A stretch of DNA of 64,000 bases from IMG/VR virus record IMGVR_UViG_3300036945_000745, one strand, 5' to 3'. Below are positions 203-53,855 of this stretch, piece after piece; positions within the stretch are counted from its first letter, which is position 1; every line of letters begins with the position of its first letter. Both the position numbers and the translations under genes were made by a program. The notes under the pieces are model-generated. The model ran no database searches. It was not told the DNA's origin and saw nothing but the letters and a program-made list of their open reading frames with translations. Origin of the DNA: a virus. Its lineage: Duplodnaviria > Heunggongvirae > Uroviricota > Caudoviricetes.

Positions 203-525
203 CCCTTATATGCTTTTATAGATATAATTCTGAAATCATCATCAAATTCAATTACATCCATTATTTCTATAATTTCACCATCAATTTTAATTACTATGGT
301 ATTAAATGTTTTGGTATCGGATTGAACGATATCTAAAACTTTTATTTCGAAATCATTTTCAAAAAGTTGTTTATTAGCATCTAATACATTATTCGGCTTA
401 AACCAACTACCATTCCAATCTACCAATGAAATCCTATCAGAATACATTTCGGATAATGTAGCTAAATCCTTTGAGGATATTGCTTCAAAATATTCATTTG
501 TTTTGATTATAAGATTTTTATACAT
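199..525 (-). CDS. hypothetical protein
   Basis: 108-aa ORF in the co-oriented minus-strand gene string; no recognisable motif. Confidence 0.5.
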   Translation of the reverse strand: MYKNLIIKTNEYFEAISSKDLATLSEMYSDRISLVDWNGSWFKPNNVLDANKQLFENDFEIKVLDIVQSDTKTFNTIVIKIDGEIIEIMDVIEFDDDFRIISIKAYKG

Positions 526-530
526 AAAAA

Positions 531-770
531 CTATTTTTCTATTTTATTTAATCGCTTCGTAAACCATATATAAAGTCCAAAAAACAATCCCGCTATACAA
601 TACAAAACGAAGTTCGCTTTCCATAAACTTCCTGTCAGTAGCAATAGGGAATATTGTACGGCATCGAAGCCAAATGGATTGAAGAATAGAGCCAGCATCA
701 GTGCCATATCTTTGTATAGCATCAATCTGTTTTTCCTGCTTTTCAGCTGTTTGATTGTTTTTACTATCAC
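531..770 (-). CDS. small membrane protein (alternative frame 544..813 overlaps)
   Basis: 79-aa ORF with two hydrophobic helices; competing 89-aa ORF in another frame cannot be excluded. Confidence 0.35.
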   Translation of the reverse strand: MIVKTIKQLKSRKNRLMLYKDMALMLALFFNPFGFDAVQYSLLLLTGSLWKANFVLYCIAGLFFGLYIWFTKRLNKIEK

Positions 771-13090: not shown

Positions 13091-13186
13091 ACCTATTTCG
13101 TACTCATCACCCCCGAGACAGGAGGGCTTGTCTGCCAGATTTGCACACGTACAAATCATTTTCCAACACACTACAATTTATTTTTG

Positions 13187-13272
13187 CGGAAGGAGTAGGA
13201 TTCGAACCCACGGTACCTTTCAGTACACTTGATTTCAAGTCAAGCGCGATAGACCAACTCTGCCATCCTTCC
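13187..13272 (-). tRNA. tRNA-Ser (anticodon UGA), type II
   Basis: Acceptor GGAAGGA/UCCUUCC; anticodon arm CUUGA-CUUGAAA-UCAAG; long variable arm; T-arm GUGGG-UUCGAAU-CCUAC. Confidence 0.8.
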
Positions 13273-13296
13273 GTTATATACAACTATATGTATATA

Positions 13297-13578
13297 TTAT
13301 AATATTTTTTTATCATTTCTTCTACGAGCTTCTTCAGCTTCTTTATACCAACGAATCCAAGTTAGGGATACATCGATAGGCGCTAATACCCAAGCCATCA
13401 TCACCACCATAATAGAATCTAAGCCAGGTGATAATCCAATCATACCTTCATTATATCTATTTTGATATTTTGTGAATAGTTGATAGAAACAATAGATAAC
13501 GCAAATTGCGTAATAAGTCCAAAACATAACTTTTAATTTTACTTTTAATAAAAATGAGTTTATGGGGAATGATTCCAA
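13297..13578 (-). CDS. membrane protein
   Basis: Two TM helices. Confidence 0.45.
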   Translation of the reverse strand: MESFPINSFLLKVKLKVMFWTYYAICVIYCFYQLFTKYQNRYNEGMIGLSPGLDSIMVVMMAWVLAPIDVSLTWIRWYKEAEEARRRNDKKIL

Positions 13579-13761
13579 ATATAAAGGTTATCCAGGTTCA
13601 GCGAGGTTTGAATTTATTGATATCACGCGACAAGAGACCCTAATATTTTTGAAGTTTGTTAATTATTCATTATCTTATTCGTTCATCCGCTATTTGGTGT
13701 CATAGTAGAATTGTAAGAATAAACTAAATAAATGGTTTCAAACCCCACTCACTCAATATTT

Positions 13762-14220
13762 TTAGATTTGAGTTGTTGCGTTATGAACATCCAATTCATC
13801 TTGCAACTGCTCAATTTTTACATTTAGAATATCCACTTTTTTTTGGATATCTACAATTGATAATTCTACTTCTTTTACTGAAACAACACTTCCATATCGG
13901 GAGTCTTGCTTTCCTTCATCCGTTGGAACTTTCTTTAATTCCTTTACCAAACCTTTCAATTCAGCCAATGCGAAGATTTTATCATACACCGGTTGGTTTG
14001 CTCTATGCAATTCGGCTTTCAATTGAACCAACTCATTTGTCAATTCAGTAACCTTATCCAATGCTTCTGCCATTGAATATCTACGAGGATTTCCTTCTTC
14101 TATTGAATTATACTTTTTCAAAATCTCATATTGAGCTTTCAAATCTGCAACCAATTTGTTTTTTGCCTTTAAGGCCTGCTTTACGTTCATATCTTTAAGT
14201 TTTATCGTTTTGTTTTTCAA
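13762..14220 (-). CDS. coiled-coil protein
   Basis: Heptad-rich 152-aa ORF. Confidence 0.5.
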   Translation of the reverse strand: MKNKTIKLKDMNVKQALKAKNKLVADLKAQYEILKKYNSIEEGNPRRYSMAEALDKVTELTNELVQLKAELHRANQPVYDKIFALAELKGLVKELKKVPTDEGKQDSRYGSVVSVKEVELSIVDIQKKVDILNVKIEQLQDELDVHNATTQI

Positions 14221-14255
14221 ATATACTATATTAATTTGGATTTTCCAAATTTATT

Positions 14256-15401
14256 TTAATGAGAATCGCCAACATTGTGTTTTTCAGCGAAAATTAAATA
14301 ATCAGGATTTATTACCTTTGCTATCTTCTCTCTACCTTTAGATTGGTGTTTGATTACAATACCCTCCTCCGGCACTTTAGTACCTTCAATGAAATTATTG
14401 AATACATACTTATCTTGTACTTCTTGTGACCACCTACCAAAGTGTAAAATCTCTACATATGGTAATTCCAAAATATCTTTGATTAAAAGTTTAGAGTTGA
14501 TTGGGTCTAAATACTCACCATCCTCCTTTACATCGAATCCTACGAACTCAATCTCACTCAACCCATAATCGTATCCCTTTTGGATTCCAGCTCCGTAAAT
14601 CTCACCATATAAAGTGATACCATCTCCGATAACTACATCCATATCTTCATTCTTAACATAATCCCATAACTTTTGTTTGATACCATATTTCTTATCGATT
14701 TCATACCATACGTTTGTATCGTAGAATCCATTAGAATCTGAACCTTTCTCAACATTATGCGAACCAACTACGAATTCGAACTCATCCCATTTGTTACCAA
14801 ATCCAAAGAACTTCTTAATATTATGCCAAACTGATAATTTAAGTTTCCTAACAATACCATATCTGGCATTTGTTCCGTGAATTTTACGAGTGATTTCAAC
14901 CGTATCTTCTTCAGTAAACATTCCAGGTACATTCTTTAAGTTTGGAAACTTATAATATACGTGAAAGTTTGGATTATCTTGGTATCTGATTTTCTTACCA
15001 CTTGCCAATTGAACCATTTTTACGGGTGGTTCAAATTTAACAATACCAAAAATATGCATACAATCACTACCTTCTTTCAAATCCCAATCTCCGATAGTAC
15101 TTCTACCATGTAAGAATTTATTTGGAATGATTAAACATTCTGAATATACACCTCTTAATTTCACAGTCCTAACTCTACCACCTTTACGAAGATAGCTAGT
15201 AACTCCCATCTCATCCGATAATGATTCCGGAATTACGGCATCGGTTGTAGCGATGATAACTTCATCACCTATTTTTTGCTCACCTTTTTTAGTGATACAA
15301 TTCCAACCACCAACTACTGCTAACTCAATGTTATCAGCTCCTTCAATTGGTTTGATTTCATTAATTGTTGCTACATAGCAAACTGAATTATTATTTTCCA
15401 T
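14256..15401 (-). CDS. ATP-dependent RNA ligase, Rnl2-like, with N-terminal extension
   Basis: Nucleotidyltransferase motif I RKIHGTNARYG (T4 Rnl2 has KIHGTN). Motif IV EEGIVIK about 165 residues downstream, followed by conserved lysines. Confidence 0.65.
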   Translation of the reverse strand: MENNNSVCYVATINEIKPIEGADNIELAVVGGWNCITKKGEQKIGDEVIIATTDAVIPESLSDEMGVTSYLRKGGRVRTVKLRGVYSECLIIPNKFLHGRSTIGDWDLKEGSDCMHIFGIVKFEPPVKMVQLASGKKIRYQDNPNFHVYYKFPNLKNVPGMFTEEDTVEITRKIHGTNARYGIVRKLKLSVWHNIKKFFGFGNKWDEFEFVVGSHNVEKGSDSNGFYDTNVWYEIDKKYGIKQKLWDYVKNEDMDVVIGDGITLYGEIYGAGIQKGYDYGLSEIEFVGFDVKEDGEYLDPINSKLLIKDILELPYVEILHFGRWSQEVQDKYVFNNFIEGTKVPEEGIVIKHQSKGREKIAKVINPDYLIFAEKHNVGDSH

Positions 15402-15406
15402 TTCTT

Positions 15407-15823
15407 TTATAATTGAATTTCAAATCTATTAGCCATTTGTTTTATTTTTTCTTCTGGCACATTATGTACATTATCACCATCGTGTCTATTTTCAACAATG
15501 ATTGAATGAACTCTATATCCATATTGCTTTGCTAATCCAAAATATGTATCCATTTCCCATCGTTTGGTGAATGTATTGGATACTACAATATGCGGATAGA
15601 ATTGTTCATTAAGTTGATTATCTTTCATTCGCATTTCTACCTCATCTCTACACCATTTATGTGCAGCAGTTAATTTATTACTATCAAAGTTATAGTTTCC
15701 CTCCTTATCATAGAAAAACTTATCAGCTTCACATACTGAAAATTCATTTGTGATAGTATTTGCGAATGTCGTTTTACCACTTCCTGGCAACCCTCTTACT
15801 AATGTTAATATTTTTGGTATCAT
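15407..15823 (-). CDS. P-loop polynucleotide-kinase-like protein (AAA_33)
   Basis: Walker A LVRGLPGSGKTTFA; about 140 aa; adjacent to the ligase and two phosphatases. Confidence 0.6.
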   Translation of the reverse strand: MIPKILTLVRGLPGSGKTTFANTITNEFSVCEADKFFYDKEGNYNFDSNKLTAAHKWCRDEVEMRMKDNQLNEQFYPHIVVSNTFTKRWEMDTYFGLAKQYGYRVHSIIVENRHDGDNVHNVPEEKIKQMANRFEIQL

Positions 15824-15829
15824 AATTTA

Positions 15830-16048
15830 TTATTTATCTTCTATCCAAATATGCATATCGGTTATTAATGGATTTGATTCACCCGGTATGTAATATGGGT
15901 TACTAATGCTTTTCCATTTCATACCACACCTATTACATATACACTTATTGGGCATCCACCCAAAATTATATGAGTATTTGTGACCTATTATTTTACAAAT
16001 CCACTTTTTCATTTTACTTATAATTCTCCACAATCTCGTGATGGTCAA
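15830..16048 (-). CDS. small Cys-rich (zinc-ribbon-like) protein
   Basis: CKIIGHKY...CICNRCG; overlaps the start of the next ORF. Confidence 0.3.
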   Translation of the reverse strand: MTITRLWRIISKMKKWICKIIGHKYSYNFGWMPNKCICNRCGMKWKSISNPYYIPGESNPLITDMHIWIEDK

Positions 16049-16667
16049 ATATGAACATACTTTTGATTGGTTGGTTTCTCATTAATCTCAATACTTCACT
16101 CATTTGAATTGGGTACAATCCGTTTCCATCCACACCCACATCCATCATTTTTCCAGCACCAATTCGTAACCTAGGTTCAAAGTGAACGTGCCCATGCAAA
16201 TGGATAGCGCCTCTCGCCATATTATCCCAACTTGCTATTGGAAAGTGCATTAGAGCAAATCGTATATCATCATATCCACCACTTCCATTTGGAAATTTCA
16301 CATTTAAGTTTAGGTATTTGTTTACCGAAGCAAAAAGCGATTGACAACCTTCTCTGTTGTTTTCAATGTGATGGTCGTGGTTGCCTGTAATGATGTGAAT
16401 GTTTTTACAAACAATTTGATTTCTGAATTGTTCGATACTTTCAAATCCACCAAAACTCCAATCACCTAAGTGAAATAGAATATCATCCTGTCCGACCATT
16501 TCGTTGATGTTACCAACGAGGTGAGCGTTCATATGTTCTAATGTTTTGAATTCTCTACAAGTCACCGGGTCTGTCCACTTTGTTGTAGCGGAACAAATAT
16601 TAGCATGGTTGTAGTGTGTATCACTTGTAAACCATAACTTCTGTCCTTTTTCTAATACTATTTTCAT
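16014..16667 (-). CDS. calcineurin-type metallophosphoesterase
   Basis: FTSDTHYNH (DxH), LGDWSFGG (GDxx) and ITGNHDHH (GNHD/E) motifs. Confidence 0.7.
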   Translation of the reverse strand: MKIVLEKGQKLWFTSDTHYNHANICSATTKWTDPVTCREFKTLEHMNAHLVGNINEMVGQDDILFHLGDWSFGGFESIEQFRNQIVCKNIHIITGNHDHHIENNREGCQSLFASVNKYLNLNVKFPNGSGGYDDIRFALMHFPIASWDNMARGAIHLHGHVHFEPRLRIGAGKMMDVGVDGNGLYPIQMSEVLRLMRNQPIKSMFIFDHHEIVENYK

Positions 16668-16672
16668 AACTC

Positions 16673-17236
16673 TTATTTTAAGAATTCTATAATCTTTTCT
16701 TTTATTCCACTTTGTTTAATACCTTCTCTACTTTTAGGCGTTAATACGAAGTTATCTAACCCCCAGTTTTTCCAATCCTCACCATTCTTACCCATATCCA
16801 AATCATCAATAGAAACCCAATGTGTTATATCATTGTTATCTCTAAGATATTGAAGTATCTCCAATGAGCGAGATTGTTCTAAATCCCATTGTCGTGACCA
16901 TATGAAGTTTTCGGGTACATCACAATCACCTAAGTTTTTCGTAAAGGCGATTGGTTTCTTTTTGATTCCCTGTGATTCATAATATTCACCCATCTCCTCA
17001 ACACTTGCCCATCGTTTCCAATCAGATGAGATAACAATTTCAGCGTTAGTTTCTTCCAATATTTCATTTAGTATATTGATTGCTTTCTTATTAAAATTAT
17101 CAAATCGAGAAAGAACTGGCAATGAACCAACTGATTGACTTAGTTTACGTCCTGCTTCTCTTTGTTTCTTAAATCTACCTCCCCACTCTGTGGATAAACA
17201 TATAACACCATCGTGGTCTAAAAATATTACTTTCAT
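16673..17236 (-). CDS. HAD-superfamily phosphatase
   Basis: Motif I FLDHDGVI (DxDG) at the N-terminus. Confidence 0.55.
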   Translation of the reverse strand: MKVIFLDHDGVICLSTEWGGRFKKQREAGRKLSQSVGSLPVLSRFDNFNKKAINILNEILEETNAEIVISSDWKRWASVEEMGEYYESQGIKKKPIAFTKNLGDCDVPENFIWSRQWDLEQSRSLEILQYLRDNNDITHWVSIDDLDMGKNGEDWKNWGLDNFVLTPKSREGIKQSGIKEKIIEFLK

Positions 17237-17892
17237 TATTCTTCTTTTAAAGTATCTCTTAATTTTTTAATAGTTTCCAAATTATTATTTTCTAAATCCA
17301 ATGAATTTGGATAATATAATAATGTTGGATTCTTTTTCTGAATATCGATGTTTGGATATTTTTTTTTAAATTCCATTACATCAAATTTCTTAGTAATCAA
17401 ATGATGACCACTTTTTGTTGGAATTATTGATTCAATTTTAGAACCGTATGGTTTACATTCATTATCAATATACGCCATCATAATTGGACTTGCATCTTTT
17501 ATATCATCTACATCAATAATCCATCTCTTCTCTTGCGTTTTGATTTGACCAACTACTGAATCGAATAAACCTTTTTGATTTGTGTTACCATCTTGTATTC
17601 GTTGTGCGAGAGTAACCATCATATTCAAACTTACATCAAAATGATTTTGTTTCTGAATGTGTATATATGCTCTTGCTTTAAACATCTCACACATCTGAAT
17701 TACTTCATCCCATCTACGTTCTAAATGGTCAATACTCTCAATACAATAAGTTTTAATAGTTCTTACCGATTGATGATTATCCCTTTCACCTTCAGGCTGG
17801 TCCTTCTTACGTTTAAAAACATATAGCATATAGAAGTCACCCTTCGTTTCGAAGTTTAGTAACGGCTTTATTAACTTTAAATTGTTTATCAT
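17236..17892 (-). CDS. hypothetical protein, possibly AEP (primase-polymerase-like) fold
   Basis: WIIDVDD fits the hhhDhD motif and PTKSGHHLIT fits sGxGxH; the match is loose. Confidence 0.3.
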   Translation of the reverse strand: MINNLKLIKPLLNFETKGDFYMLYVFKRKKDQPEGERDNHQSVRTIKTYCIESIDHLERRWDEVIQMCEMFKARAYIHIQKQNHFDVSLNMMVTLAQRIQDGNTNQKGLFDSVVGQIKTQEKRWIIDVDDIKDASPIMMAYIDNECKPYGSKIESIIPTKSGHHLITKKFDVMEFKKKYPNIDIQKKNPTLLYYPNSLDLENNNLETIKKLRDTLKEE

Positions 17893-17920
17893 AACTTACA
17901 TTTTACTCCGTAAATATACG

Positions 17921-17954
17921 AAAAAAACCCCACATTGCCAAATAATTGTGAGGT
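17921..17954 (-). terminator. intrinsic terminator after the tRNA array
   Basis: Minus-strand hairpin CCUCACA...UGUGGGG followed by a U7 run. Confidence 0.5.
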
Positions 17955-17963
17955 TTTTTGTTG

Positions 17964-18034
17964 TTACCCGAGCAGGATTCGAACCTACCCTAACTGCACC
18001 AAAAACAGTTGTGCTACCGCTACACCATCAGGCA
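17964..18034 (-). tRNA. tRNA-Gln (UUG)
   Basis: Cloverleaf UGCCUGA...UCGGGUA; anticodon loop UUUUGGU; T-loop UUCGAAU. Confidence 0.75.
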
Positions 18035-18115
18035 AAATTCTCAAGCATTCTACTCCCCGCAATACGGAATTGTATCTAACTTAGCCCATCGTTGGCGGTA
18101 TGGGTACTTGAGTTG

Positions 18116-18187
18116 AGCGAGTATTCGGACTCGAACCGAAATCTCCGACTTGGAAGGCCGGAACACTAACCATTGTGCTATACTCGC
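18116..18187 (-). tRNA. tRNA-Gly (UCC)
   Basis: GCGAGUA acceptor; anticodon loop CUUCCAA; T-arm UUCGG-UUCGAGU-CCGAA. Confidence 0.85.
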
Positions 18188-18243
18188 ATTTAGTGGATGA
18201 ACAACATCTATCGTTCTTGCGGCTTCCCACTAAAGCCCATTTG

Positions 18244-18316
18244 AGCGAAAGACCGGGCTCGAACCGGCTACCCTCACCTTGGCAAGGTGATGCTCTACCA
18301 AATGAGCTACTTTCGC
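18244..18316 (-). tRNA. tRNA-Gly (GCC)
   Basis: GCGAAAG acceptor; anticodon loop UUGCCAA; T-loop UUCGAGC. Confidence 0.85.
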
Positions 18317-18708
18317 TTGTGACCCCTACCATTCTTTCTAGCGGATTCAGCCATTTTCTTTTTACCTTCGGCTGAAACATTTCTACTAGCGAATGTTGGA
18401 GTTTGTGAATGGCAATTAGGACAAAGTATTCTTAAATTATCATAAGTATTATTTGTTCTATCACCATCAATATGGTCTACATGCATACTAATTTCATGTC
18501 CCAACCACTCTGTGATTCCACAATCCTCACATTTATTTCCTCTAATTCGTTTAAGATAGATTGCCATATTATGATGCCAAACACTACCCTTTACAAATCT
18601 TTGTTTTACAGAGTACTCACCCTGACATTTGTTTGAACAATACTTACCATTTTTTTGAGATGGCATATAATCAAACTCTTTGTCACAATTTATACAATTA
18701 CCTTTCAT
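18307..18708 (-). CDS. HNH homing-type endonuclease
   Basis: HVDHIDGDRTNNTYDNLRILCPNCHSQ (HNH plus zinc knuckle); lies inside the tRNA array. Confidence 0.7.
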   Translation of the reverse strand: MKGNCINCDKEFDYMPSQKNGKYCSNKCQGEYSVKQRFVKGSVWHHNMAIYLKRIRGNKCEDCGITEWLGHEISMHVDHIDGDRTNNTYDNLRILCPNCHSQTPTFASRNVSAEGKKKMAESARKNGRGHKRK

Positions 18709-18766
18709 AGTTTTTTTCTTTTATATAAATATTAGAATACTTAAAAAAGATAAACTATTCTAACTA

Positions 18767-18843
18767 TGGTGGACCAGATAGGGCTCGAACCTATGACCTA
18801 CGCATTATGAGTGCGGCGCTCTAACCGACTGAGCTACAAGTCC
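18767..18843 (-). tRNA. tRNA-Met or tRNA-Ile2 (CAU), CCA encoded
   Basis: GGACUUG acceptor; loop CUCAUAA; 3' ACCA encoded. Confidence 0.8.
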
Positions 18844-18895
18844 AATTATCGTTTAATCTAACGATAAAATCTAATATCGTTTATTTCAACGATAG

Positions 18896-18969
18896 TGGAG
18901 ATAGAGGGATTCGAACCCACGACCCTCTACGTGCAAGGCAGATGCTCTAGCCAACTGAGCTATATCCCC
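18896..18969 (-). tRNA. tRNA-Ala (UGC)
   Basis: GGGGAUA acceptor with the G3:U70 alanine determinant; loop CUUGCAC. Confidence 0.8.
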
Positions 18970-19081
18970 ATTAATGTAATGTCTGTGCGGTTTGTTTCGA
19001 ATCCACTCCTTTGTACGAGTTTCAAAAGTTTCCATTTCATTCTTAGCATCTGTTCCGCTATTCTTTCGAATCATTACATTG

Positions 19082-19166
19082 TACCTCGGGCCAGACTCGA
19101 ACTGGCACGAACCTTTCGGTTCAAAGGATTTTAAGTCCTTCGTGGCTACCATTACACCACCGAGGC
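19082..19166 (-). tRNA. tRNA-Leu (UAA), type II
   Basis: GCCUCGG acceptor; anticodon arm AAGGA-CUUAAAA-UCCUU; long variable arm. Confidence 0.8.
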
Positions 19167-19169
19167 AAC

Positions 19170-19607
19170 TTATAATATGTAAAGTTTAACTTTATGAAAC
19201 TTAGTTTGTTTATCTTTCGGATTGATTAAAATATCAATTTTCTTTCTCCACCTACTATGCATCAAATCTCTAACTACATATACACCACTTAGTTTTCCAA
19301 TTCCGGTAACTCTTACCTTATCTCCAAATCTAAGTTTCTTTTTTAAATCTCTACTCACAGCTATTACCCTGTGCTTTTTAGGATTTGTTTTACTTAACCT
19401 AAATCCACTAGCCGTTATGGTTGGTGAACTATCGGTTTCTGATTCACTTACAGTATAGGTTGTTGCCGTTACTATAAGTGCATTTTGTTTCTTTACAACA
19501 ACTTCCTCTTTTTCCTTTTCAACCTCAAACTTTCTACCATCAAATTTACTAACACTTGCTGGCATCATTACAAAGATACAAAATAAAGTTCTGATTAATA
19601 TGCTCAT
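19170..19607 (-). CDS. secreted 3D-domain (MltA/YuiC-like) protein
   Basis: Signal peptide; C-terminal IAVSRDLKK-LRFGDKVRV...GVYVVRDLMHSRWRKKIDI fits the 3D-domain pattern. Confidence 0.45.
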   Translation of the reverse strand: MSILIRTLFCIFVMMPASVSKFDGRKFEVEKEKEEVVVKKQNALIVTATTYTVSESETDSSPTITASGFRLSKTNPKKHRVIAVSRDLKKKLRFGDKVRVTGIGKLSGVYVVRDLMHSRWRKKIDILINPKDKQTKFHKVKLYIL

Positions 19608-19625
19608 ACGCTTTTCTTTTGTTAG

Positions 19626-19699
<74 letters not shown>

Positions 19700-19704
19700 A
19701 TATG

Positions 19705-19778
19705 CGGGATGTACGGGACTCGAACCCGTGACCTTCGCCGTGACAGGGCGACATTGTAACCAACTCTACTAACATCCC
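19705..19778 (-). tRNA. tRNA-Asp (GUC)
   Basis: GGGAUGU acceptor; loop CUGUCAC. Confidence 0.8.
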
Positions 19779-19782
19779 ATTG

Positions 19783-19855
19783 AGCCTCCGGTCGGGCTCG
19801 AACCAACCACCTGCTGATTACAAATCAGCTGCTCTACCAAATGAGCTACGGAGGC
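19783..19855 (-). tRNA. tRNA-Thr (UGU)
   Basis: GCCUCCG/CGGAGGC acceptor; loop UUUGUAA. Confidence 0.85.
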
Positions 19856-19953
19856 AATTAAAGATTAACTACACCTATTAAAGAAATCACATCTTCTTTT
19901 CCCCAAACGAGGAATTAGTTTCACCCACATAGGCGATTTACATTAATCTTTTG

Positions 19954-20027
19954 TACTCCGTACGGGGCTCGAACCCGTAAGCTCTCCCGTGAAAGGGGAG
20001 TGTCCTAACCAATTAGACGAACGGAGC
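19954..20027 (-). tRNA. tRNA-Glu (UUC)
   Basis: Anticodon arm CUCCC-CUUUCAC-GGGAG. Confidence 0.8.
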
Positions 20028-20062
20028 GTTTGCTTTTTAAATACCTATCTATCAAAGAACTT

Positions 20063-20100
20063 ATACAAATATACAGAAAGTTTTTCAAATTTCCTAATAT
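20063..20100 (-). promoter_or_regulatory. RNA-gene-class promoter repeat (AGGAAnTTTGAAAAACTTTCTGTATATTTG)
   Basis: About 40-nt repeat shared with copies at 23463, 23584 and 24232; exact TATATTTG -7 box. Confidence 0.45.
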
Positions 20101-20104
20101 TTTT

Positions 20105-20578
20105 TTACATTTTTACTAAATGGTCAGCCGCATATGTTGCGATTGGACCTAATGTTTTATATCTAACTTCATATCCCATACCTTCAACCATACCAACCGC
20201 CTGTCTGAATACTTCGTTAGATTTATATCTAGGGTCTGGGTTCAAATCCACATCAATCCAACGAGGTTTCGGAATACCTGCTTCCTTCATCATCTCTGCC
20301 GTTTCAATAGCGTACCATACTTCATTTAACAAACGAGTAGAACGAGTCCATTCTTTTTTAGTTTGCCATCTTCTGAATAATACGTGTGCTCCTTTACCTC
20401 TATGATACAAAGCAACTACTACGGCGTATGTCGTTTTATCAGCACGATTTTGTGAATCACATCCAATAAGTATATCAACATCATCATACATATCTATATA
20501 ATTTGTAATATATTCTTCCAATTCTACACTTTCACCTGTTAGTTTTTTGTAAACCATAGTTATAAATTTTGTACCCAT
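20105..20578 (-). CDS. hypothetical protein, possible RNase H-like nuclease
   Basis: D...E...D...D spacing (ILIGCDSQ, YAIETAE, WIDVDLNPD, AADHLV); weak. Confidence 0.3.
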   Translation of the reverse strand: MGTKFITMVYKKLTGESVELEEYITNYIDMYDDVDILIGCDSQNRADKTTYAVVVALYHRGKGAHVLFRRWQTKKEWTRSTRLLNEVWYAIETAEMMKEAGIPKPRWIDVDLNPDPRYKSNEVFRQAVGMVEGMGYEVRYKTLGPIATYAADHLVKM

Positions 20579-20646
20579 AGAAGGACTCGAACCTTCAATT
20601 GTGTGGTGTCTAAAGCCACTGCGTATTCCAATTCCGCCATACGGGC
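20572..20646 (-). tRNA. atypical tRNA, anticodon UAG (Leu by anticodon) but type-I architecture
   Basis: GCCCGUA/UAUGGGU acceptor; T-arm GAAGG-UUCGAGU-CCUUC; anticodon stem GUGGC/ACCAC with a C-A at the loop end; 6-nt variable region. Confidence 0.5.
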
Positions 20647-20655
20647 AATTTTAAG

Positions 20656-20741
20656 TAGAGAGTAAGGGGCTCGAACCCTTGCGACTTTAACATCCTACCT
20701 GTTTAGCAAACAGGCCCCTTCACCAACTTGGGTAACTCTCT
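20656..20741 (-). tRNA. tRNA-Ser (GCU), type II
   Basis: AGAGAGU/ACUCUCU acceptor; loop UUGCUAA; long variable arm. Confidence 0.85.
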
Positions 20742-20743
20742 AT

Positions 20744-20820
20744 TGGGGTGATTAATGGGATTCGAACCCATACTATCAGTACCACAAACTGACGTGCTAA
20801 CCATTAACACTATAAACACC
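20744..20820 (-). tRNA. tRNA-His (GUG) with G-1 and encoded CCA
   Basis: Extra 5' G pairs with C73 (histidine identity element); loop UUGUGGU; 3' CCCA. Confidence 0.8.
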
Positions 20821-20888
20821 ATATTTCGTATAATATATTATACATTTACCCCTAAATACCAGGTTTTTGTATAGTATAATATACATTG

Positions 20889-20958
20889 TTGCATGTATGA
20901 GGTTCGAACTCATTTGGTCATCCTTATGAGAGATAACTCTTTTCCACTAAGCCATGCA
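20889..20958 (-). tRNA. tRNA-like gene, anticodon CAU, with a degenerate D-arm (possible Met/Ile2 or pseudo-tRNA)
   Basis: Loop CUCAUAA; T-arm AUGAG-UUCGAAC-CUCAU; acceptor has 6 bp plus a G-A; no convincing D-stem; 70 nt. Confidence 0.4.
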
Positions 20959-21025
20959 GTTTGTGGAATCGAACCACTTTCCCAACTCCACGTCGGGCGA
21001 TATATCCAATATCCTTCACCGGTTG
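20959..21025 (-). ncRNA. tRNA-sized element with a T-arm but no foldable acceptor or anticodon stem (tRNA remnant?)
   Basis: GUGG-UUCGAUU-CCAC T-arm; exactly fills the gap between two tRNAs. Confidence 0.25.
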
Positions 21026-21095
21026 AGGTCAATGTTGGAATCGAACCAACTCCGTAAGTTTTGCAGACCCACCGGCCTCCACGACCAAACTGACC
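21026..21095 (-). tRNA. tRNA-Cys (GCA)
   Basis: GGUCAGU/AUUGACC acceptor; loop CUGCAAA; short D-arm. Confidence 0.75.
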
Positions 21096-21101
21096 ATTAT
21101 G

Positions 21102-21173
21102 TAGTTCTATTAGGATTCGAACCCAAACTTCTTCATCCGTAGTGAAGGGTGCTATCCGTTACACCATAGAACT
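21102..21173 (-). tRNA. tRNA-Arg (ACG)
   Basis: Anticodon arm CUUCA-CUACGGA-UGAAG. Confidence 0.85.
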
Positions 21174-21178
21174 ATTAG

Positions 21179-21249
21179 CACGGATAGAAAGATTCGAACT
21201 TCCATCAAAGGTTTTGGAGACCCGTATGCTACCATTGCACCATACCCGT
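21179..21249 (-). tRNA. tRNA-Trp (CCA)
   Basis: GGUCUCCAAAACC anticodon region. Confidence 0.8.
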
Positions 21250-21340
21250 AATTAATAAGGCGTTACGCATCCATCTGTAACTTTACTTTTTTTGAGTCCG
21301 GATGTGGCCACATCAACTCTGGGAACTATTACCTTATTTG

Positions 21341-21414
21341 TTGGTAATGCGGGATTCGAACCTGCCACCTTCTCGGTATCAGCGAGATGCTCTAACCAAA
21401 TGAGCTAATTACCA
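21341..21414 (-). tRNA. tRNA-Ile (GAU)
   Basis: UGGUAAU/AUUACCA acceptor; loop CUGAUAC. Confidence 0.85.
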
Positions 21415-21420
21415 ATATTG

Positions 21421-21496
21421 TCGGATAGGCAGGATTCGAACCTGCGTGCTCTGCTTCCCAAAAGCAGCGAGATAGACCTGACTCCTCTACTATCCG
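21421..21496 (-). tRNA. tRNA-Pro (UGG)
   Basis: CGGAUAG/CUAUCCG acceptor; loop UUUGGGA. Confidence 0.85.
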
Positions 21497-21502
21497 TTAT
21501 TG

Positions 21503-21576
21503 TGAACCCGAATGGACTCGAACCATTGACTCCCTCATTAAAAGTGAGGTGCTCTAACCAACTGAGCTACGGATTC
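21503..21576 (-). tRNA. tRNA-Lys (UUU)
   Basis: Anticodon arm CCUCA-CUUUUAA-UGAGG. Confidence 0.85.
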
Positions 21577-21581
21577 AATTG

Positions 21582-21654
21582 TGGGACCTAATGGAATCGA
21601 ACCATTTCCTTTGGATTTTCAGTCCAACGTACGCACCAGCTATACGAAAGCCCC
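21582..21654 (-). tRNA. tRNA-Phe (GAA)
   Basis: Anticodon arm UUGGA-CUGAAAA-UCCAA. Confidence 0.8.
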
Positions 21655-21660
21655 AATTGG

Positions 21661-21740
21661 TGGGAGTAGACGGACTCGAACCGCCGAACCCGAAGGAGAG
21701 CATTTACAGTGCCCCGCAATTGCCGCTATGCGATACTCCC
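21661..21740 (-). tRNA. tRNA-Tyr (GUA), type II
   Basis: GGGAGUA/UACUCCC acceptor; loop CUGUAAA; long variable arm. Confidence 0.85.
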
Positions 21741-21808
21741 AATTTCCAATTTTGTTATCACCATTTCCCCTCTAAACGAGCGGCGTGTTCCGGATTGGTA
21801 ACCGTTAG

Positions 21809-21882
21809 TAGGAGATATAGGATTCGAACCTATGACCCTTTGGATGTAAACCAAATGCTCTAACCAACTGAGCTAATCTTCT
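21809..21882 (-). tRNA. tRNA-Val (UAC)
   Basis: Anticodon arm UUUGG-UUUACAU-CCAAA. Confidence 0.8.
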
Positions 21883-21885
21883 ATT

Positions 21886-21960
21886 TGGCGGGGGAAGATG
21901 GATTCGAACCAACAACCTTTGAATTAACAGTTCACTGCTCTACCGTTGAGCTATACCCCC
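21886..21960 (-). tRNA. tRNA-Asn (GUU), CCA encoded
   Basis: ACUGUUAAU anticodon region; 3' GCCA. Confidence 0.8.
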
Positions 21961-21994
21961 AAAACAAAAAACCCCTAACTTTGTGAGTTAGAGG
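21961..21994 (-). terminator. intrinsic terminator abutting the 5' end of tRNA-Asn
   Basis: Minus-strand CCUCUAAC-UCACAAA-GUUAGGGG hairpin followed by UUUUUUGUUUU. Confidence 0.5.
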
Positions 21995-23462
21995 TTTAAA
22001 TATTCTTATAAAATTTTTACACTTTATCCTAATATGATGTCCTCTAACTTTGTACTAATATAATCCACTTTGCCTAAATTCAAGACTGCCGGATTTGCTA
22101 TCGTACTAAACATACCATTCCCTGTCCACTCATTTCTTTGCGGTTGCAGGTTACAAATTGTATGTTGCGTTAAAGTTTTCATCGTTAATATATATCTAAT
22201 TATTTTAATTTATTCATTTTTTTAAAAAAAGAGTTTTGGAAGGCGGAACTCTTAATATTGTACTTCTATCTGAACCGGCAATATTTTATCGTGTCTTATT
22301 GCGTTTTTGTTGAAAACCCTTCCGAAAAACAGCTACCCTTACTTACTTTTTAGTTTATGCTTTTAGGTCATTTAAACTAAGTTGCCTTATTAGCCAAGCA
22401 CAATCTTAAATGTGGACCACGAGAATCTTAATTGAGCGGTGAAAGGTGCTGCCCCCCTCCTCCTATCTGGAATGATAGGCGTGCTACTGTTACACTAACA
22501 CCGCTTATAAAAAAAGGATGAGAATACTCCTTTTGGCGAACCAGCTTTAGAAAGATTATTTGATTCCTTCCGTTTCCACACCCTTTTGAGGTGTACCAAT
22601 TCAATGTGGGTTAGTAATGCCAACCACTCATAGAGTTTCAAACTACTCTCTTCCTACTTATTTTCTTCAAGCCTCGCAGCCTGATTAGTTCTTGCGGAAT
22701 TAGAAACCTTTCAAAAGAATCACAGACCTCTTGCGGAGGTATCGTGGCAGGGAACAACTCCCTACTATGTACACACCTTTCATCTGAAACTGGTAAACAC
22801 TTTTGCTTAATTTGATTTATAAGTTTGCACTTCATACGGCAAATTGAGTTTTGGTTTGTAGATGGATTCGAGTAGTGGTTTACCACCAGCTCCGTTATCT
22901 TTTGAACAACAGAATACTATACTACTCAATGTGTTATCCCTAACACCATACATCAAGTCATCTTCAATAGAAGGGGTTGGTGCCCCACTCTAAAGGATAG
23001 TAACGCCACCACGCGTACACAGTCTTATCTTACGTCCTTTCGGATAGCTTGATTCTCAAGACCACTTTGGTATTGAATCACGCAATGATAAGGAGAGATT
23101 AAGTCCTTACTTCTCGCAATAATTCTATGAGTTATTCTTATTGATGTTCCCATCTCAACTGAACAATCTACGTTTGCCCAGTCATTTCGGCTCTTCGATG
23201 ATAGTGTTACCCCCATCTACAAAGTCAAAATGATATCTCACTTGCCTACTCAAGCTTATCTCCCTTACGGGGGAGTAGCCGCAGTTACATTAACCAATGT
23301 ACCCACTTTATCCTACTTTCGTAGTTTATTTCACGACCATAGGCGGCCGTTGTTACACTATGTAGAACGAATCTACTATGTGTAATCTTTTCAGTATTTT
23401 AAAGAACATTTTTGAAGTTGAATACCGAGTATCTTTCATTACCTATAAGTTTCAAACTTATT

Positions 23463-23503
23463 ATAAAGATACGAAAAGTTTTTCAAACTTCCTAATTTAT
23501 TTT
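23463..23503 (-). promoter_or_regulatory. RNA-gene-class promoter repeat, reading into the ORF-free region
   Basis: Plus-strand ataaagatacgaaaagtttttcaaacttcctaatttatttt. Confidence 0.4.
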
Positions 23504-23583
23504 ACTTTTTTTGTTGAACATTTTCGGCTATCCTGCTAATGTGTGTTTAGACTATACTGCCTTCCTACTTCTGAACAACTTTA

Positions 23584-23622
23584 CAAATATACGAAAACAT
23601 TTTCACATTTCCTAATTTATTT
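23584..23622 (-). promoter_or_regulatory. RNA-gene-class promoter repeat, reading into the ORF-free region
   Basis: Plus-strand caaatatacgaaaacattttcacatttcctaatttattt. Confidence 0.45.
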
Positions 23623-23638
23623 GTAAATATTTTTTTAG

Positions 23639-23710
23639 TTGCGGATGAAGGATTCGAACCTCCGACCTTATGGTTATGAGCCACACGAGCTACCACTGCT
23701 CTAATCCGCG
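23639..23710 (-). tRNA. initiator tRNA-fMet (CAU)
   Basis: C1xA72 mismatch, A11:U24 pair, loop CUCAUAA, GG/CC at the base of the anticodon stem: all bacterial initiator hallmarks. Confidence 0.7.
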
Positions 23711-23754
23711 ATATAATTTTAAAGAACTTCTATATTGTTGTATTTATATATATA

Positions 23755-23768
23755 CAAATATACGGAAA
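23755..23768 (-). promoter_or_regulatory. promoter for initiator tRNA-fMet
   Basis: TATATTTG -7 box about 40 nt upstream of the tRNA 5' end. Confidence 0.45.
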
Positions 23769-23806
23769 AAAATAAAAAATACAAAATAATTTTTACTTTT
23801 TTTTTG

Positions 23807-24211
23807 TGGAGGTGGAGGGAGTCGAACCCTCGTCCAAATACGGAGTTAATAACCATCGTTCACAAGCTTATTTAGTTTTTCTTAACTAACAAAATAAATA
23901 GTTTCTAATTCCCCGTTGCTACTATTAAACTTAGATGGTTCTATTGTTAAGGATAATTACCAAAAACACTTCCTATTTCTTTTCGGATAGAAATCACACC
24001 TGGTTTCACATTCTTTTTTACCTCACGATGTGTGCGAGGAAGGATTAGGCTGCTACAGCGTAATCGGCACCTACGAAAGACATTGCATCTTCGAAGGTCA
24101 TTGTAGATAATTCTACTGCGTTTATTGTTCGATAGGTATTTACGGATTTCCATCTAACCCGGCTTGCATCAACTTACCAATTCATCGTACCTGTCAAATC
24201 CAGGCACCCCC
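23807..24211 (-). ncRNA. ssrA: tmRNA (SsrA)
   Basis: 5' GGGGGUGCCUGGAUUUGACAGG and 3' GAGGGUUCGACUCCCUCCACCUCCA form a tRNA-Ala-like acceptor with G3:U70. Internal reading frame ...GCCGAUUACGCUGUAGCAGCCUAA encodes ...GADYAVAA followed by a stop. Confidence 0.8.
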
Positions 24212-24231
24212 TTATTTCAAATAACTTATTA

Positions 24232-24271
24232 CAAATATACAGAAAGTTTTTTAAACTTCCAAATTTATTTT
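24232..24271 (-). promoter_or_regulatory. promoter for tmRNA
   Basis: RNA-gene-class repeat; -7 box TATATTTG about 20 nt upstream of the mature tmRNA 5' end. Confidence 0.5.
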
Positions 24272-24999
24272 ATAATATTTGCGTTTTTCAACATTAATTG
24301 TGTGGTTACCCACTTCTTACCAATTGGATTCTTTATGCCAGAAGTAATAAAATTACTAACATTCTTTTTAATATCTCCGGTAACATTATTACCATCATTA
24401 CTATTATCCACAATACGGAAATTACCGCTGAACATTGTTTGGAATTTACCCAAATTGTTTTGGCAATCTTTCCAAATTGGAATCAATAGGTTTTCTGGCA
24501 ATACTCTATCTCTCTTAGAGTTTCTATGTTTAGCAACTTCCAAAGATGTGTTTACAAATACCATAAAGGTATCGTATCCCAATGCTTCAGCTCTTTGCTT
24601 TTGTTTTTGAATCTTAGCTACATCATCACCCGTTCCATCGATAACCATTCCTAATCTACCCTCTTCATAAAATGATTTAATCTTTTGAGTAGTTTGCTTA
24701 GCCAATTCTCTTACACCATGTGGGTCTTTAGTAATCTTATCCCATAATTCGGGTTGCTCTTTTTCTATCTTAGCTAAATCCTTTGGGTCAATTCCATTCT
24801 TTTTTAATTGAGCTTCAAATGCCGTATCTGAATTTACAGACTTCAAACCACTAGCTGAAAAAGATGCAATACCTTGTATTCCAAATATCTCTTTTGATAC
24901 TTTTGATTTACCACTACCAGGTCCTCCTGCTAAAAATATACATTTTAGAATGCCTGGGTCATATACACCCTCCTTTAACAAATCAGTTAATCGCATCAT
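24265..24999 (-). CDS. P-loop nucleotide/nucleoside kinase-like protein
   Basis: Walker A IFLAGGPGSGKSKV; substrate unknown. Confidence 0.5.
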   Translation of the reverse strand: MMRLTDLLKEGVYDPGILKCIFLAGGPGSGKSKVSKEIFGIQGIASFSASGLKSVNSDTAFEAQLKKNGIDPKDLAKIEKEQPELWDKITKDPHGVRELAKQTTQKIKSFYEEGRLGMVIDGTGDDVAKIQKQKQRAEALGYDTFMVFVNTSLEVAKHRNSKRDRVLPENLLIPIWKDCQNNLGKFQTMFSGNFRIVDNSNDGNNVTGDIKKNVSNFITSGIKNPIGKKWVTTQLMLKNANIIK

Positions 25000-26035: not shown

Positions 26036-26419
26036 TTATAATCCTACTTCTTCCCAATTAGAATTGTTGAATCCAGCATCTCTTTTAACTGATACGGATA
26101 GTGCTCTATTACGTTCTTCATCTTTTGAAGAGTTGTTATTGATTAGGATACGTTCCTCTCTACCAATACCCATTACTAATTGATGGAATTGAAATCCTGC
26201 GTTTCCTAATTGTCTAACGGTTACTCCTCTCAAAGAATCAGGTCGTGCGGTAGTGATTACAATGTGATGTCCGGCATCAATCCACTCTCTAAATTTCTCT
26301 GCAGCGCCTGGTAGAACTTCAAAGTTATTTTCATTTAGTTCATTAAAATCTACTTGTCTTAAAAGAGTTCCATCGATATCACAAAAGATAGTTTTTACAT
26401 TTTTCTGGCTCATACTCAT
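26036..26419 (-). CDS. small HAD-family phosphatase (nucleotidase-like)
   Basis: Motif I IFCDIDGTLL. Confidence 0.5.
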   Translation of the reverse strand: MSMSQKNVKTIFCDIDGTLLRQVDFNELNENNFEVLPGAAEKFREWIDAGHHIVITTARPDSLRGVTVRQLGNAGFQFHQLVMGIGREERILINNNSSKDEERNRALSVSVKRDAGFNNSNWEEVGL

Positions 26420-26477
26420 TACGTTTTTATTGACAACAAATATACAAAATATATCCGATATATCAAAGCTTTTTTAC

Positions 26478-32837: not shown

Positions 32838-33437
32838 TTATTGGTGGTCGGATGGTGGGCAAACCATTTCTAGCTCATCCCACTTATATTTAGGTTTTTC
32901 ATTTAAGAATACATAACACTTCCATTTCTTTTGTGTTTCGAAATAGATATGCTTTTGTAATACCAATGGAATTGCTGCTCCGGATGGTACTCTCTTTGGA
33001 TTTTTATCGAATATAGTTTTAATGATTACTGTTAAGTTTTCAGTATCATCCCATTTTCTTTCTTGCTCTTCTAATAATCTCCATTCACCTCTATTAAGAT
33101 ATTGGTCTTGCATTATACAATTCAAATACGAAAACGTTTGTTTAAGGTTTTCCATATTATCAGAAAATGATGCAGCAGGTGCTCCATGTCCTTTATCGTA
33201 TATGTTTGATTTGTAATCAGCCGCATCCGATGTTTTAATATTTACTTCTTTGTAAAAATCCATAGAACCTCTATTTACTTTTGTAGGTCTATTTATATCT
33301 CTATATAGTATTCGTAATGGTTGCTCCAATTGTTGAGAATACAATACCTCAAATACATTGTTTTTAACTTTGATATCTTGTCCGAATCCTGATAACGTTA
33401 CACTTATAAAAGTAATAACCGATAATAATTGTTTCAT
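32838..33437 (-). CDS. secreted non-specific DNA/RNA endonuclease (Serratia/EndoG family)
   Basis: Signal peptide; active-site-like NIYDKGHGAPAASF (DRGH motif). Confidence 0.55.
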   Translation of the reverse strand: MKQLLSVITFISVTLSGFGQDIKVKNNVFEVLYSQQLEQPLRILYRDINRPTKVNRGSMDFYKEVNIKTSDAADYKSNIYDKGHGAPAASFSDNMENLKQTFSYLNCIMQDQYLNRGEWRLLEEQERKWDDTENLTVIIKTIFDKNPKRVPSGAAIPLVLQKHIYFETQKKWKCYVFLNEKPKYKWDELEMVCPPSDHQ

Positions 33438-47697: not shown

Positions 47698-47712
47698 CAA
47701 ATATACGAAAAG
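47698..47712 (-). promoter_or_regulatory. promoter between the endolysin terminator and the holin-candidate/thyA genes
   Basis: Plus-strand caaatatacgaaaag, i.e. CTTTTCGTATATTTG on the minus strand. Confidence 0.45.
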
Positions 47713-47728
47713 TTTGTTACAAATCCAA

Positions 47729-47756
47729 ATAAAAAAGGGAAAACTTTCGTTCTCCC
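47729..47756 (-). terminator. terminator after the endolysin gene (hairpin is also T-flanked on the plus strand)
   Basis: GGGAAAAC-UUUC-GUUCUCCC with A/T runs on both sides. Confidence 0.45.
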
Positions 47757-51722: not shown

Positions 51723-51792
51723 AATTTTGTTTTTTGTTAATTATTTATTTTATTTAATGTTTCAAATATACAATTATTTTTGGAAATTACCA

Positions 51793-51818
51793 AATAAAAA
51801 AGGGAGAATTTATCTCCC
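51793..51818 (-). terminator. intrinsic terminator
   Basis: Minus-strand GGGAGAUAAAUUCUCCC followed by UUUUUU. Confidence 0.5.
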
Positions 51819-52007: not shown

Positions 52008-52060
52008 AATTTTAATTTTTAATTAAACAAATATAAGGAGATTATTTTAAATTAACAAAT

Positions 52061-53326: not shown

Positions 53327-53855
53327 ACCAATGTTTTACATTTCTATCACCTACCAATAAGAAGAAGCAATTATAACATAATGGTCTGATATTTTCTAAT
53401 TTACGATTATTAAGATTACCATCTAAAAAATCTATAAGTAATGGCATCTTACCATCGGTAATTCTTTCTTCTCCAAATCCACAGCTACCACATACTTTTG
53501 GAACATATCCACTATCAAATAATTTATTTTTAAATTTATGTAATGGATATCTAATATGCTTACCTGCGATTAAATCATCTATGTGATATTTTTTGTTTTT
53601 TATTTTCTTAGCTTTCTCAATTCCGATACCATATGGATTTTTTAAGTTTTCGAATAATCCATATAATTTAGCATATTTTTTATAGGTGTTGTATGATACA
53701 CCCAATGTTCTTGCTGCTTCAAACGCAGAGCGTGATTTTTCTTGTGCTGCTTTAATTTGAGATTCCAATAAAGGTTTTGCGCCTAATCCTCTTTTTGTAG
53801 TTCTACTATTGGGTTCTATATTTGGAAAAAATTCTTCTACTTCTTGGTTTTCCAT
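53265..53855 (-). CDS. HNH/zinc-finger endonuclease-like protein
   Basis: CGSCGFGEE...NLNNRKLENIRPLCYNCF. Confidence 0.4.
   Translation of the reverse strand: MENQEVEEFFPNIEPNSRTTKRGLGAKPLLESQIKAAQEKSRSAFEAARTLGVSYNTYKKYAKLYGLFENLKNPYGIGIEKAKKIKNKKYHIDDLIAGKHIRYPLHKFKNKLFDSGYVPKVCGSCGFGEERITDGKMPLLIDFLDGNLNNRKLENIRPLCYNCFFLLVGDRNVKHWYEENGYADEENIQEQSPVQD

Follow-up and report, generated by a model that had tools for sequence, protein, structure and literature searches.

The closest described relatives of the RNA reported here are the bacterial one-piece transfer-messenger RNAs (tmRNAs; Rfam family RF00023), such as those of E. coli and Bacteroides. In phages, tmRNAs are likewise established: 402 of 18,146 isolate phage genomes (2.3%) carry one, the OM43 phage Melnitz has a two-piece form (PMC9004378), and huge phages carry tmRNA together with SmpB (PMC7162821). 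Here we describe a tmRNA gene in a 64,000-nt stretch of DNA (the window) from the IMG/VR virus record IMGVR_UViG_3300036945_000745, assigned to the Caudoviricetes. Judged from its sequence, the locus is a genuine phage-encoded ribosome-rescue RNA, and it is canonical in mechanism and architecture. With the bacterial one-piece tmRNAs it shares the G3:U70 pair, the discriminator A, the T-arm, a long helix 2, a first pseudoknot (PK1) before the resume codon, U(-5)A(-4), a stop codon inside helix 5, further pseudoknots after the frame and a tag ending in YAxAA. Unlike them, it is phage-encoded, its tag has 24 codons instead of ~9-10 and ends in AVAA and not ALAA, an extra hairpin lies between the second and third pseudoknots (PK2 and PK3), and no adjacent smpB was found. 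The features in common with earlier phage tmRNAs are a complete gene in a lytic-looking phage genome, tRNA genes nearby, an early-type promoter and a proposed role in the upkeep of the hijacked translation apparatus. Unlike these, of which Melnitz has the two-piece form, it is one-piece, not permuted and without a riboswitch, and its family is known only from metagenomic viral contigs and has a conserved virus-specific tag. Two things go beyond the ordinary: this abundant tag family, which is limited to viruses and has a selected extension, and a conserved linkage of the tmRNA to the GOLLD RNA.

The gene occupies window positions 24211..23807 on the minus strand (405 nt), with G1 at 24211 and the discriminator A at 23807, and sequence inspection, ARAGORN and Rfam agree on a one-piece form. 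ARAGORN called a tmRNA at 23806..24211(-) with the tag AVELSTMTFEDAMSFVGADYAVAA followed by a stop. The Rfam model RF00023 matched 24211..23804 with 108.5 bits (E 1.8e-41; gathering score 47 bits) and was covered from position 1 to 374 of 374; the posterior probability is low in the middle of the alignment. The match is far above chance, both because of the E-value by itself and because helices are compensated in viral relatives. The acceptor stem of 7 bp is formed by GGGGGUG (24205..24211, tmRNA positions 1-7) and CACCUCC (23808..23814, positions 398-404), contains the alanine identity pair G3:U70 and is followed by the discriminator A, while the T-arm GAGGG-UUCGACU-CCCUC (23815..23831, positions 381-397) has a loop of the UUCRAnY type. 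A preliminary description of the window had proposed a virus-encoded tmRNA with precisely this acceptor stem, G3:U70 pair and UUCGACU loop, and had named a tmRNA covariance-model search and ARAGORN as checks. Both came out positive and agree with each other, the former highly significantly, and every element described is found in its place on the minus strand. A two-piece, circularly permuted tmRNA was considered and ruled out; the 5' acceptor strand lies at position 1 and the 3' strand at 398-404, and ARAGORN gave no permuted flag.

Related viral tmRNAs were collected from IMG/VR. An exact search with the DNA of the tag end returned 103 viral loci and a codon-degenerate search (GAYTAYGCNGTNGCNGCNTAA) at least 119, and the family counts given below cover these listed matches. 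ARAGORN found a tmRNA in most of them, and the eleven relatives tested against RF00023 scored 73-116 bits. G3:U never varies in an anchored alignment of 83 distinct sequences, in which the acceptor stem is 99.3% paired and pair 5:400 occurs as AU (46), GC (27), CG (4) or UA (2). The T-arm is 100% paired, with four of its five pairs changed on both sides, and the same holds in an alignment of the window's own sub-clade (A2, 29 sequences including the window).

The tag reading frame (24045..24119, minus strand) has no start codon; it opens with GCA at 24119-24117 (tmRNA positions 93-95), runs for 24 codons encoding AVELSTMTFEDAMSFVGADYAVAA and closes with a UAA stop at 24047-24045, within helix 5. 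Its YAxAA-type end GADYAVAA, followed by a stop, had been recognised in the preliminary description, and ARAGORN and Rfam confirm it. The resume position had been left uncertain there, with the first GCA and a tag of 24 residues as the candidate. ARAGORN starts the frame at this GCA, the RF00023 alignment puts it on the consensus GCA, and the context AAUAA+2 nt, which places U at -5 and A at -4 relative to the resume codon, is kept in the family. Since these three lines agree, we regard the first GCA as settled. The E. coli counterparts of the two upstream nucleotides, U85 and A86, set the tmRNA reading frame (PMC2481249). Among the matches listed, 116 parsed tmRNAs gave 57 distinct tag frames and 37 distinct peptides of 23-26 residues, such as DEMSTMTFEDLMAFVGADYAVAA, AEELSSFTFEDAMAFVGADYAVAA, GEEKSSFTWEDAMAFIGADYAVAA and ANVELSTMTFEDAMAWMNSFDYAVAA; the resume codon in the distinct frames is GAC (36), GCA (16), GGC (2), GCT (2) or GAT (1). 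In a sub-family with the tag end ...GAYDYAVAA, ARAGORN gives spurious tags (VNKPEHYLSAP, EQPQLYLSAV and similar); its members L010, L016, L020, L050, L063, L126, L127, L131, L148, L159 and L162 have the conserved frame intact, and the frames of the spuriously tagged members (~10) were re-parsed from the conserved context.

Coding-type selection was evaluated on 16 codons in 48 distinct frames, upstream of the last six tag codons, which are fixed by how the sequences were selected. The summed entropy was 7.63, 4.87 and 13.65 at the first, second and third codon positions, respectively. The E, S, T and F residues of the tag are invariant, yet synonymous codons are used for them; the serine is retained through TCN and AGT, and the leucine through CTT and TTA. 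Variation is thus biased towards the third position, the pattern of a translated sequence and not that of an RNA helix, and these substitutions show that the tag peptide itself is under selection. Towards the stop codon, helix 5 pair 155:161 swaps from UA (64) to AU (19) among the sequences from the degenerate search, through synonymous alanine codons (GCU...GCA to GCA...GCU), so the helix 5 region meets constraints on peptide and RNA together.

The fold was assessed with a hand-built full model, pseudoknots included, on A2. In this alignment 81.4% of the cells are paired, compared with 37-44% in slid registers, and the covariation score is 0.268 compared with 0.06-0.08; none of 500 shuffles reached the observed values. 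In the 83-sequence alignment, shifted registers gave 0-72% paired, the sole exception being a -3 shift of the repetitive inner helix 5 stem (94%). The 5' strands of helix 2 lie at 24162..24193 (H2a 19-26, H2b 32-38, H2c 39-42, H2d 45-50) and its 3' strands at 23835..23867 (tmRNA 345-377). H2a is 84.9% paired among the 83 sequences, with double changes at all eight pairs, and within A2 H2d is 100% and H2b and H2c are ~75% paired. PK1 (24131..24161; H3 51-55/65-69, H4 58-62/77-81) lies between helix 2 and the resume codon, directly upstream of the latter. Its stem H3 is 100% paired in A2 and has two doubly compensated pairs (AU19/CG10 and GC22/AU7). The same layout recurs with other sequences in other sub-clades (GAUGG/CUAUC, GUAAG/CUUAC, UGAUAC/GUAUCG, GGUUCU/GGAAUC), and with an alignment-free pseudoknot finder 29 of 44 distinct regions score better for PK1 than shuffles of the same sequence (p<=0.05). 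The helix 5 hairpin GAUUA-C-GCUG-UAG-CAGC-C-UAAUC (24043..24065), which holds the stop codon in its 3' strand, is 98-100% paired in the 83 sequences and 100% in A2.

PK2 follows at 24007..24039 (H6 173-178/186-191, H7 180-184/201-205). On the indel-rich A2 columns pairing reaches 85% at its inner H6 pairs, which show double changes, and 63% in H7; H6 is also seen in the minimum free energy (MFE) and centroid folds. The preliminary description had made its claim depend on pseudoknots folding around the frame. Besides the fully paired H3 of PK1, PK2 was recovered by the alignment-free finder in the window and, among the four relatives displayed, in L005 and L116 but in neither the L007 nor the L062 sub-type. 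An extra hairpin, AUUUCU/AGAAAU (23975..23994, tmRNA 218-237), lies between PK2 and PK3 in a lineage-specific insertion of ~30 nt, which within A2 is limited to the window, L109 and L154 and makes the window tmRNA ~20-30 nt longer than most relatives. The hairpin is 100% paired in these three sequences, with one U:A to U:G change. PK3 and the fourth pseudoknot (PK4) were modelled by hand and placed tentatively at 23897..23974 (tmRNA 238-276 and 277-315). The last hairpin before helix 2 closes (23872..23889, tmRNA 323-328/335-340) is 90.8% paired in A2, with five of six pairs changed on both sides. With regard to PK3 and PK4, the finder returned 2.55 pseudoknots per sequence compared with 1.71 in shuffles (median z 2.1), a modest excess.

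Family-wide MAFFT columns for H2b-d and PK1 were rejected; they were 39-76% paired, and a shifted register did better, an alignment artefact of indels between sub-clades. They were replaced by the sub-clade alignment and the alignment-free finder. Over the full family RNAalifold recovers just the acceptor stem, H2a, part of helix 5 and the T-arm, and the MFE z-score of the single sequence (-1.85) is uninformative as pseudoknots are not modelled. The comparison of related sequences shows that selection maintains the layout of helix 2, PK1, frame and helix 5 in more than 100 viral contigs of the family.

The tag was compared with cellular tags in a degenerate scan for the tag end, which covered 185,579 species of bacteria and archaea, each represented by one genome, and sees only tags ending in DYAVAA. 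It returned 109 loci. Cellular tags with this end are 9-13 residues long and include ADNYDYAVAA (Geobacter and other delta-proteobacterial lineages), ANDYDYAVAA (Nitrospina and Nitrospirae), ADYDYAVAA (Selenomonadaceae), ANNDYAVAA (Lachnospiraceae) and AENNDSVDYAVAA (Treponema); the one exception, of 22 residues (ANDNFAKAANDNFVAEDYAVAA), is a two-piece Rickettsiales tag of unrelated sequence. The long tag was found solely on viral contigs and on one contig of 2092 bp (CAIJZG010000155.1, L196) that is binned as 'uncultured Bacteroidetes bacterium YR_bin-4742' and carries a family tmRNA with the tag DEKSTMTYNDLMAFVGMDYAVAA. As far as a scan for DYAVAA can see, the long tag is virus-specific. In all likelihood the small contig is a piece of phage DNA that was binned together with its host; it would then flag a contamination of this metagenome-assembled genome and provide a weak host link.

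For Bacteroides the native SsrA tag, GETNYALAA, is a strong degron in vivo (bioRxiv 10.1101/2025.03.18.644028). The phage tag end GADYAVAA, for which the preliminary description had suggested a comparison with Bacteroidetes host tags, does resemble it, the common pattern being G-x-x-[N/D]-Y-A-[L/V]-A-A. Unlike the Bacteroides tag, that of the phage has valine for leucine at -3 and 16 extra conserved residues upstream, with the consensus (A/D)(V/E)ELS(T/S)(M/W/F)TFEDAM(A/S)F(V/I). It thus has the look of a host-type degron with a conserved extension of 16 virus-specific residues in front. A comparison of the tag peptide with the PDB gave chance matches only, and a literature search for the tag sequence returned nothing relevant.

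In gene orientation the sequence upstream of the tmRNA reads AAATTTGG-N19-TATATTTG-N20-G1. The preliminary description had noticed a promoter about 20 nt upstream, and we identify it as a Bacteroidota-type promoter (24232..24263, minus strand): the -7 box TATATTTG (24232-24239) ends 20 nt before G1 and is separated by a 20-nt spacer from a TTTG (24260-24263) at the Bacteroidota -33/-7 spacing. The Bacteroidetes sigma-A promoter consists of -33 and -7 elements, with the -7 box spanning -12 to -5 (PMC6847099, PMC9723704), so that transcription is predicted to start ~15 nt before G1, leaving a short leader. Related tmRNAs have TATATTTG or TATATTTA upstream, usually ending 13-20 nt before G1. In the window the motif TTTG-N19-21-TAnnTTTG occurs eight times compared with 2.37 expected, a number reached by one of 100 shuffles. 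Seven of the eight copies lie on the coding (minus) strand, all reading TATATTTG (14218-14249, 23755-23785, 24232-24263, 26437-26467, 47698-47729, 51763-51794 and 52028-52059), and one on the plus strand (53794-53824); the copies that were compared with the gene map are located immediately ahead of genes, among them the tmRNA and the next tRNA-Met. A scan of the window for sigma-70 promoters and terminators showed no enrichment of the former and no terminator. The analysis of the upstream region and of the acceptor shows that the tmRNA has its own promoter of the Bacteroidota type along with an intact tRNA-like domain of alanine identity.

A leader-like motif, AGTTnTTTnAAAT or AGTT(C/A)TTT(A/G)AAAT, abuts the mature 5' ends of the tmRNA (24214-24226) and of the tRNA-Met (23716-23728), and a copy with one mismatch (23396-23408) precedes the presumed 5' region of GOLLD, all on the minus strand. 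Similar sequences (GTTCTTTAAAATAT, GTTCATTGAAATAAT) abut many related tmRNAs. The motif is not enriched window-wide; it may be a leader or processing element.

As a second Bacteroidetes signature, Shine-Dalgarno sequences are missing: a core (GGAG/GAGG/AGGA at -20..-4) precedes three of the 66 open reading frames (ORFs) with an ATG start, compared with 8.8% of random windows. Because of the promoter type, the start regions without Shine-Dalgarno sequences and the one binned contig, a Bacteroidota host, which the preliminary description had implied, is likely.

Phage-like, co-oriented genes flank the tmRNA, extending for 24 kb in one direction and for 40 kb in the opposite one; nearly all ORFs of at least 100 aa are on the minus strand, and the G+C content is ~32%. 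Phage-typical genes include those for an RNA ligase, a thymidylate synthase, an AAA_5 ATPase and a GHMP kinase with a match to a phage-only PHROG. At 22515-22929 (minus strand), 0.9 kb downstream of the tmRNA, lies a GOLLD RNA (RF02032, 292 bits, E 1.6e-82). The ~465 nt between this match and the promoter and leader-like motif at 23396-23408 contain no credible ORF and look structured; up to about 23395 this stretch is probably the variable 5' half of GOLLD, outside the 416-position model. An array of 25 tRNA genes (13186-23710, minus strand) serves all 20 amino acids, with two genes each for Met, Gly, Leu, Ser and Arg, and encloses an HNH gene (18307-18708) and an RNase H-like ORF (20105-20578), both identified by domain matches. 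Islands of GOLLD RNA, a tRNA cluster and an HNH endonuclease have been published (PMC6582537, which cites the original description of GOLLD), and the window resembles them in holding GOLLD, the tRNA genes and the HNH gene in one co-oriented island. Unlike them, this phage lineage has the tmRNA upstream of GOLLD, at a distance of 1-3.5 kb, in eight of 11 related viral loci, where the order tmRNA, GOLLD, tRNA array is conserved on one strand. No report of an association between tmRNA and GOLLD was found in the literature searched.

Around the island, also on the minus strand, domain matches identify a set of genes of the RNA-repair type: the RNA ligase (14256-15401; PF09414 and PF21189), two AAA_33 P-loop kinases (15407-15823 and 24265-24999), a metallophosphoesterase (16014-16667), a HAD_SAK_2 'Swiss Army Knife RNA repair' HAD domain (16673-17236, 2e-22) and a HAD phosphatase (26036-26419). 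Further out lies a non-specific DNA/RNA endonuclease (32838-33437). The RNA-repair-type genes suggest a pathway of tRNA or RNA repair that counters anticodon or RNA nucleases of the host.

Integration of phages into ssrA is frequent, and a predicted prophage can contain the tmRNA of its host; ssrA fragments in prophages have been discussed (PMC9004378). The gene might on these grounds be a bacterial ssrA at a prophage-chromosome junction, or one passively captured, and not a working phage gene. This origin is extremely improbable and, for practical purposes, refuted: the gene is full-length, phage-like co-oriented genes extend far on both of its sides, it sits within a tRNA/GOLLD island whose order recurs in the related viral loci, its tag is in none of the bacterial species genomes scanned apart from the 2-kb binned contig, and no integrase was seen among the 40 ORFs scanned. 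The epithet 'virus-encoded' chosen in the preliminary description is therefore upheld by the co-oriented phage-like neighbours, the related IMG/VR loci and the distribution of the tag.

As to the phage itself, a blastn search of the tmRNA region against 50,697 INPHARED phage records gave no match, megablast of 24 kb of flanking DNA against annotated phages gave tRNA matches only, and tblastn with two conserved window proteins, run for a cultured relative or host, found just 24-40% identity, with mixed hosts. Among the matches listed, related loci have 72-84% nucleotide identity to the window for several kb on and beside the tmRNA, with L062 highest (83.8% over 13 kb). A tag identical to the window's is found in L116 (271-kb contig) and is carried by relatives such as IMGVR_UViG_3300034050_000451 (271 kb). 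Because no annotated phage is close while IMG/VR contigs share this identity, the window, by sequence comparison, newly joins a lineage of uncultured phages. Its contigs reach 180-578 kb; the genome is probably larger than 200 kb, the window covering part of it.

We consider it very probable that the gene encodes a functional, one-piece phage tmRNA that rescues ribosomes. In an infected Bacteroidota cell it would be transcribed with a leader of ~15 nt, trimmed at the 5' end by RNase P and at the 3' end, provided with CCA and charged by the host alanyl-tRNA synthetase (AlaRS). SmpB, either the host's or a copy encoded outside the window, would bring it to ribosomes that have stalled on mRNAs that are broken or lack a stop codon. 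Translation would resume at GCA, so that alanine and the 24 encoded residues are appended, and the C-terminus GADYAVAA would send the product to host proteases while the ribosome is freed. The phage would gain in that ribosomes stay available at a time when RNA is being cut by nucleases of host and phage and by anti-phage RNases. Such a role fits the location in an island with 25 tRNAs, GOLLD, RNA ligase, kinase and phosphatase genes and a non-specific endonuclease; similar roles of phage tmRNAs have already been proposed (PMC9004378, PMC7162821).

Some observations weigh against this explanation. The gene does not encode the 3' CCA, the discriminator being followed by CAA, and CCA would have to be added post-transcriptionally; among relatives the trinucleotide in this position is CCA (47), CAA (43) or CTA (20), and the majority of the window's 25 tRNA genes likewise lack an encoded CCA. 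Stem H4 of PK1 is invariant in the window's sub-clade and hence uninformative there, and PK3 and PK4 are weakly supported, their indel-rich MAFFT columns being only 39-80% paired. No SmpB domain was detected in the 40 window ORFs scanned with Pfam, the window being part of the genome, and the partner is assumed. The tag ends in AVAA instead of the ALAA of Bacteroides, recognition by host proteases being proposed by analogy; the Bacteroidota host is a probable one, and the benefit to the phage is deduced from gene context.

The unencoded CCA, the low posterior probability in the middle of the RF00023 alignment and the lineage-specific insertion might also be expected of a decaying, non-functional relic. 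That the gene is such a relic is hardly credible, as its helices are kept by compensatory substitutions, the identity elements are invariant in more than 80 distinct sequences, the frame is under coding-type selection, the promoter is its own and conserved, and most of the phage's tRNA genes are without an encoded CCA as well. A decoy that titrates host SmpB, AlaRS or proteases, and so disables host trans-translation or a defence depending on it instead of rescuing ribosomes for the phage, would be compatible with the lack of an SmpB gene among the window ORFs scanned, and phages are known to interact with host trans-translation (PMC7162821). We judge this very unlikely, as a decoy would need no peptide-selected frame, conserved resume context or helix 5.

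A second viral tmRNA was noticed in L002 (IMGVR_UViG_2684623221_000002; 327-656, minus strand). It is 330 nt long, has the same first 22 nt and 3' end as that of the window, and carries a tag, VRQIEAKVVSMAKSRVGSSVSLAA, that is also 24 residues long and unrelated to the window's. Long tags may be common among phage tmRNAs.

Ribosome rescue as set out above might be refined by a function of the 16-residue extension, which could give tagged proteins a phage-specific fate through an adaptor of phage or host, another protease or a sorting or sensing factor; the system would then do more than copy the quality control of the host. The extension is under selection at the peptide level and was met on viral contigs alone, bacterial tags that share the last six residues of the phage tag being 9-13 aa long except for the one unrelated Rickettsiales tag; a host-like degron would need only ~9 residues, and the tmRNA of L002 combines the shared 5' 22-mer with an equally long tag of other sequence. 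On the other hand, the PDB comparison gave no meaningful match and no partner protein came to light, the extension might serve as a spacer, RNA-level constraint on the frame could explain part of its conservation, and the species-genome scan is blind to tags that do not end in DYAVAA. Moreover, long tmRNA tags occur in some bacteria too. We regard such a fate as possible, if rather doubtful. A bipartite tag, in which the host-type degron GADYAVAA is preceded by a selected, virus-specific extension of ~16 residues read by a second factor, is somewhat less likely still. If true, the phage could tell the proteins that its own tmRNA has tagged from those tagged by the host's, re-route them or control the timing of their fate, and the island of tmRNA, GOLLD, tRNA and RNA-repair genes would be a dedicated module for translation maintenance and counter-defence.

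The locus adds a well-supported and abundant tmRNA family from uncultured phages that probably infect Bacteroidota. With more than 80 distinct sequences, the family is large enough for comparative structure work, and the placement of the tmRNA beside GOLLD again ties this RNA to translation-related genes. The tag provides a simple, testable handle on what phages gain from a ribosome-rescue RNA of their own.

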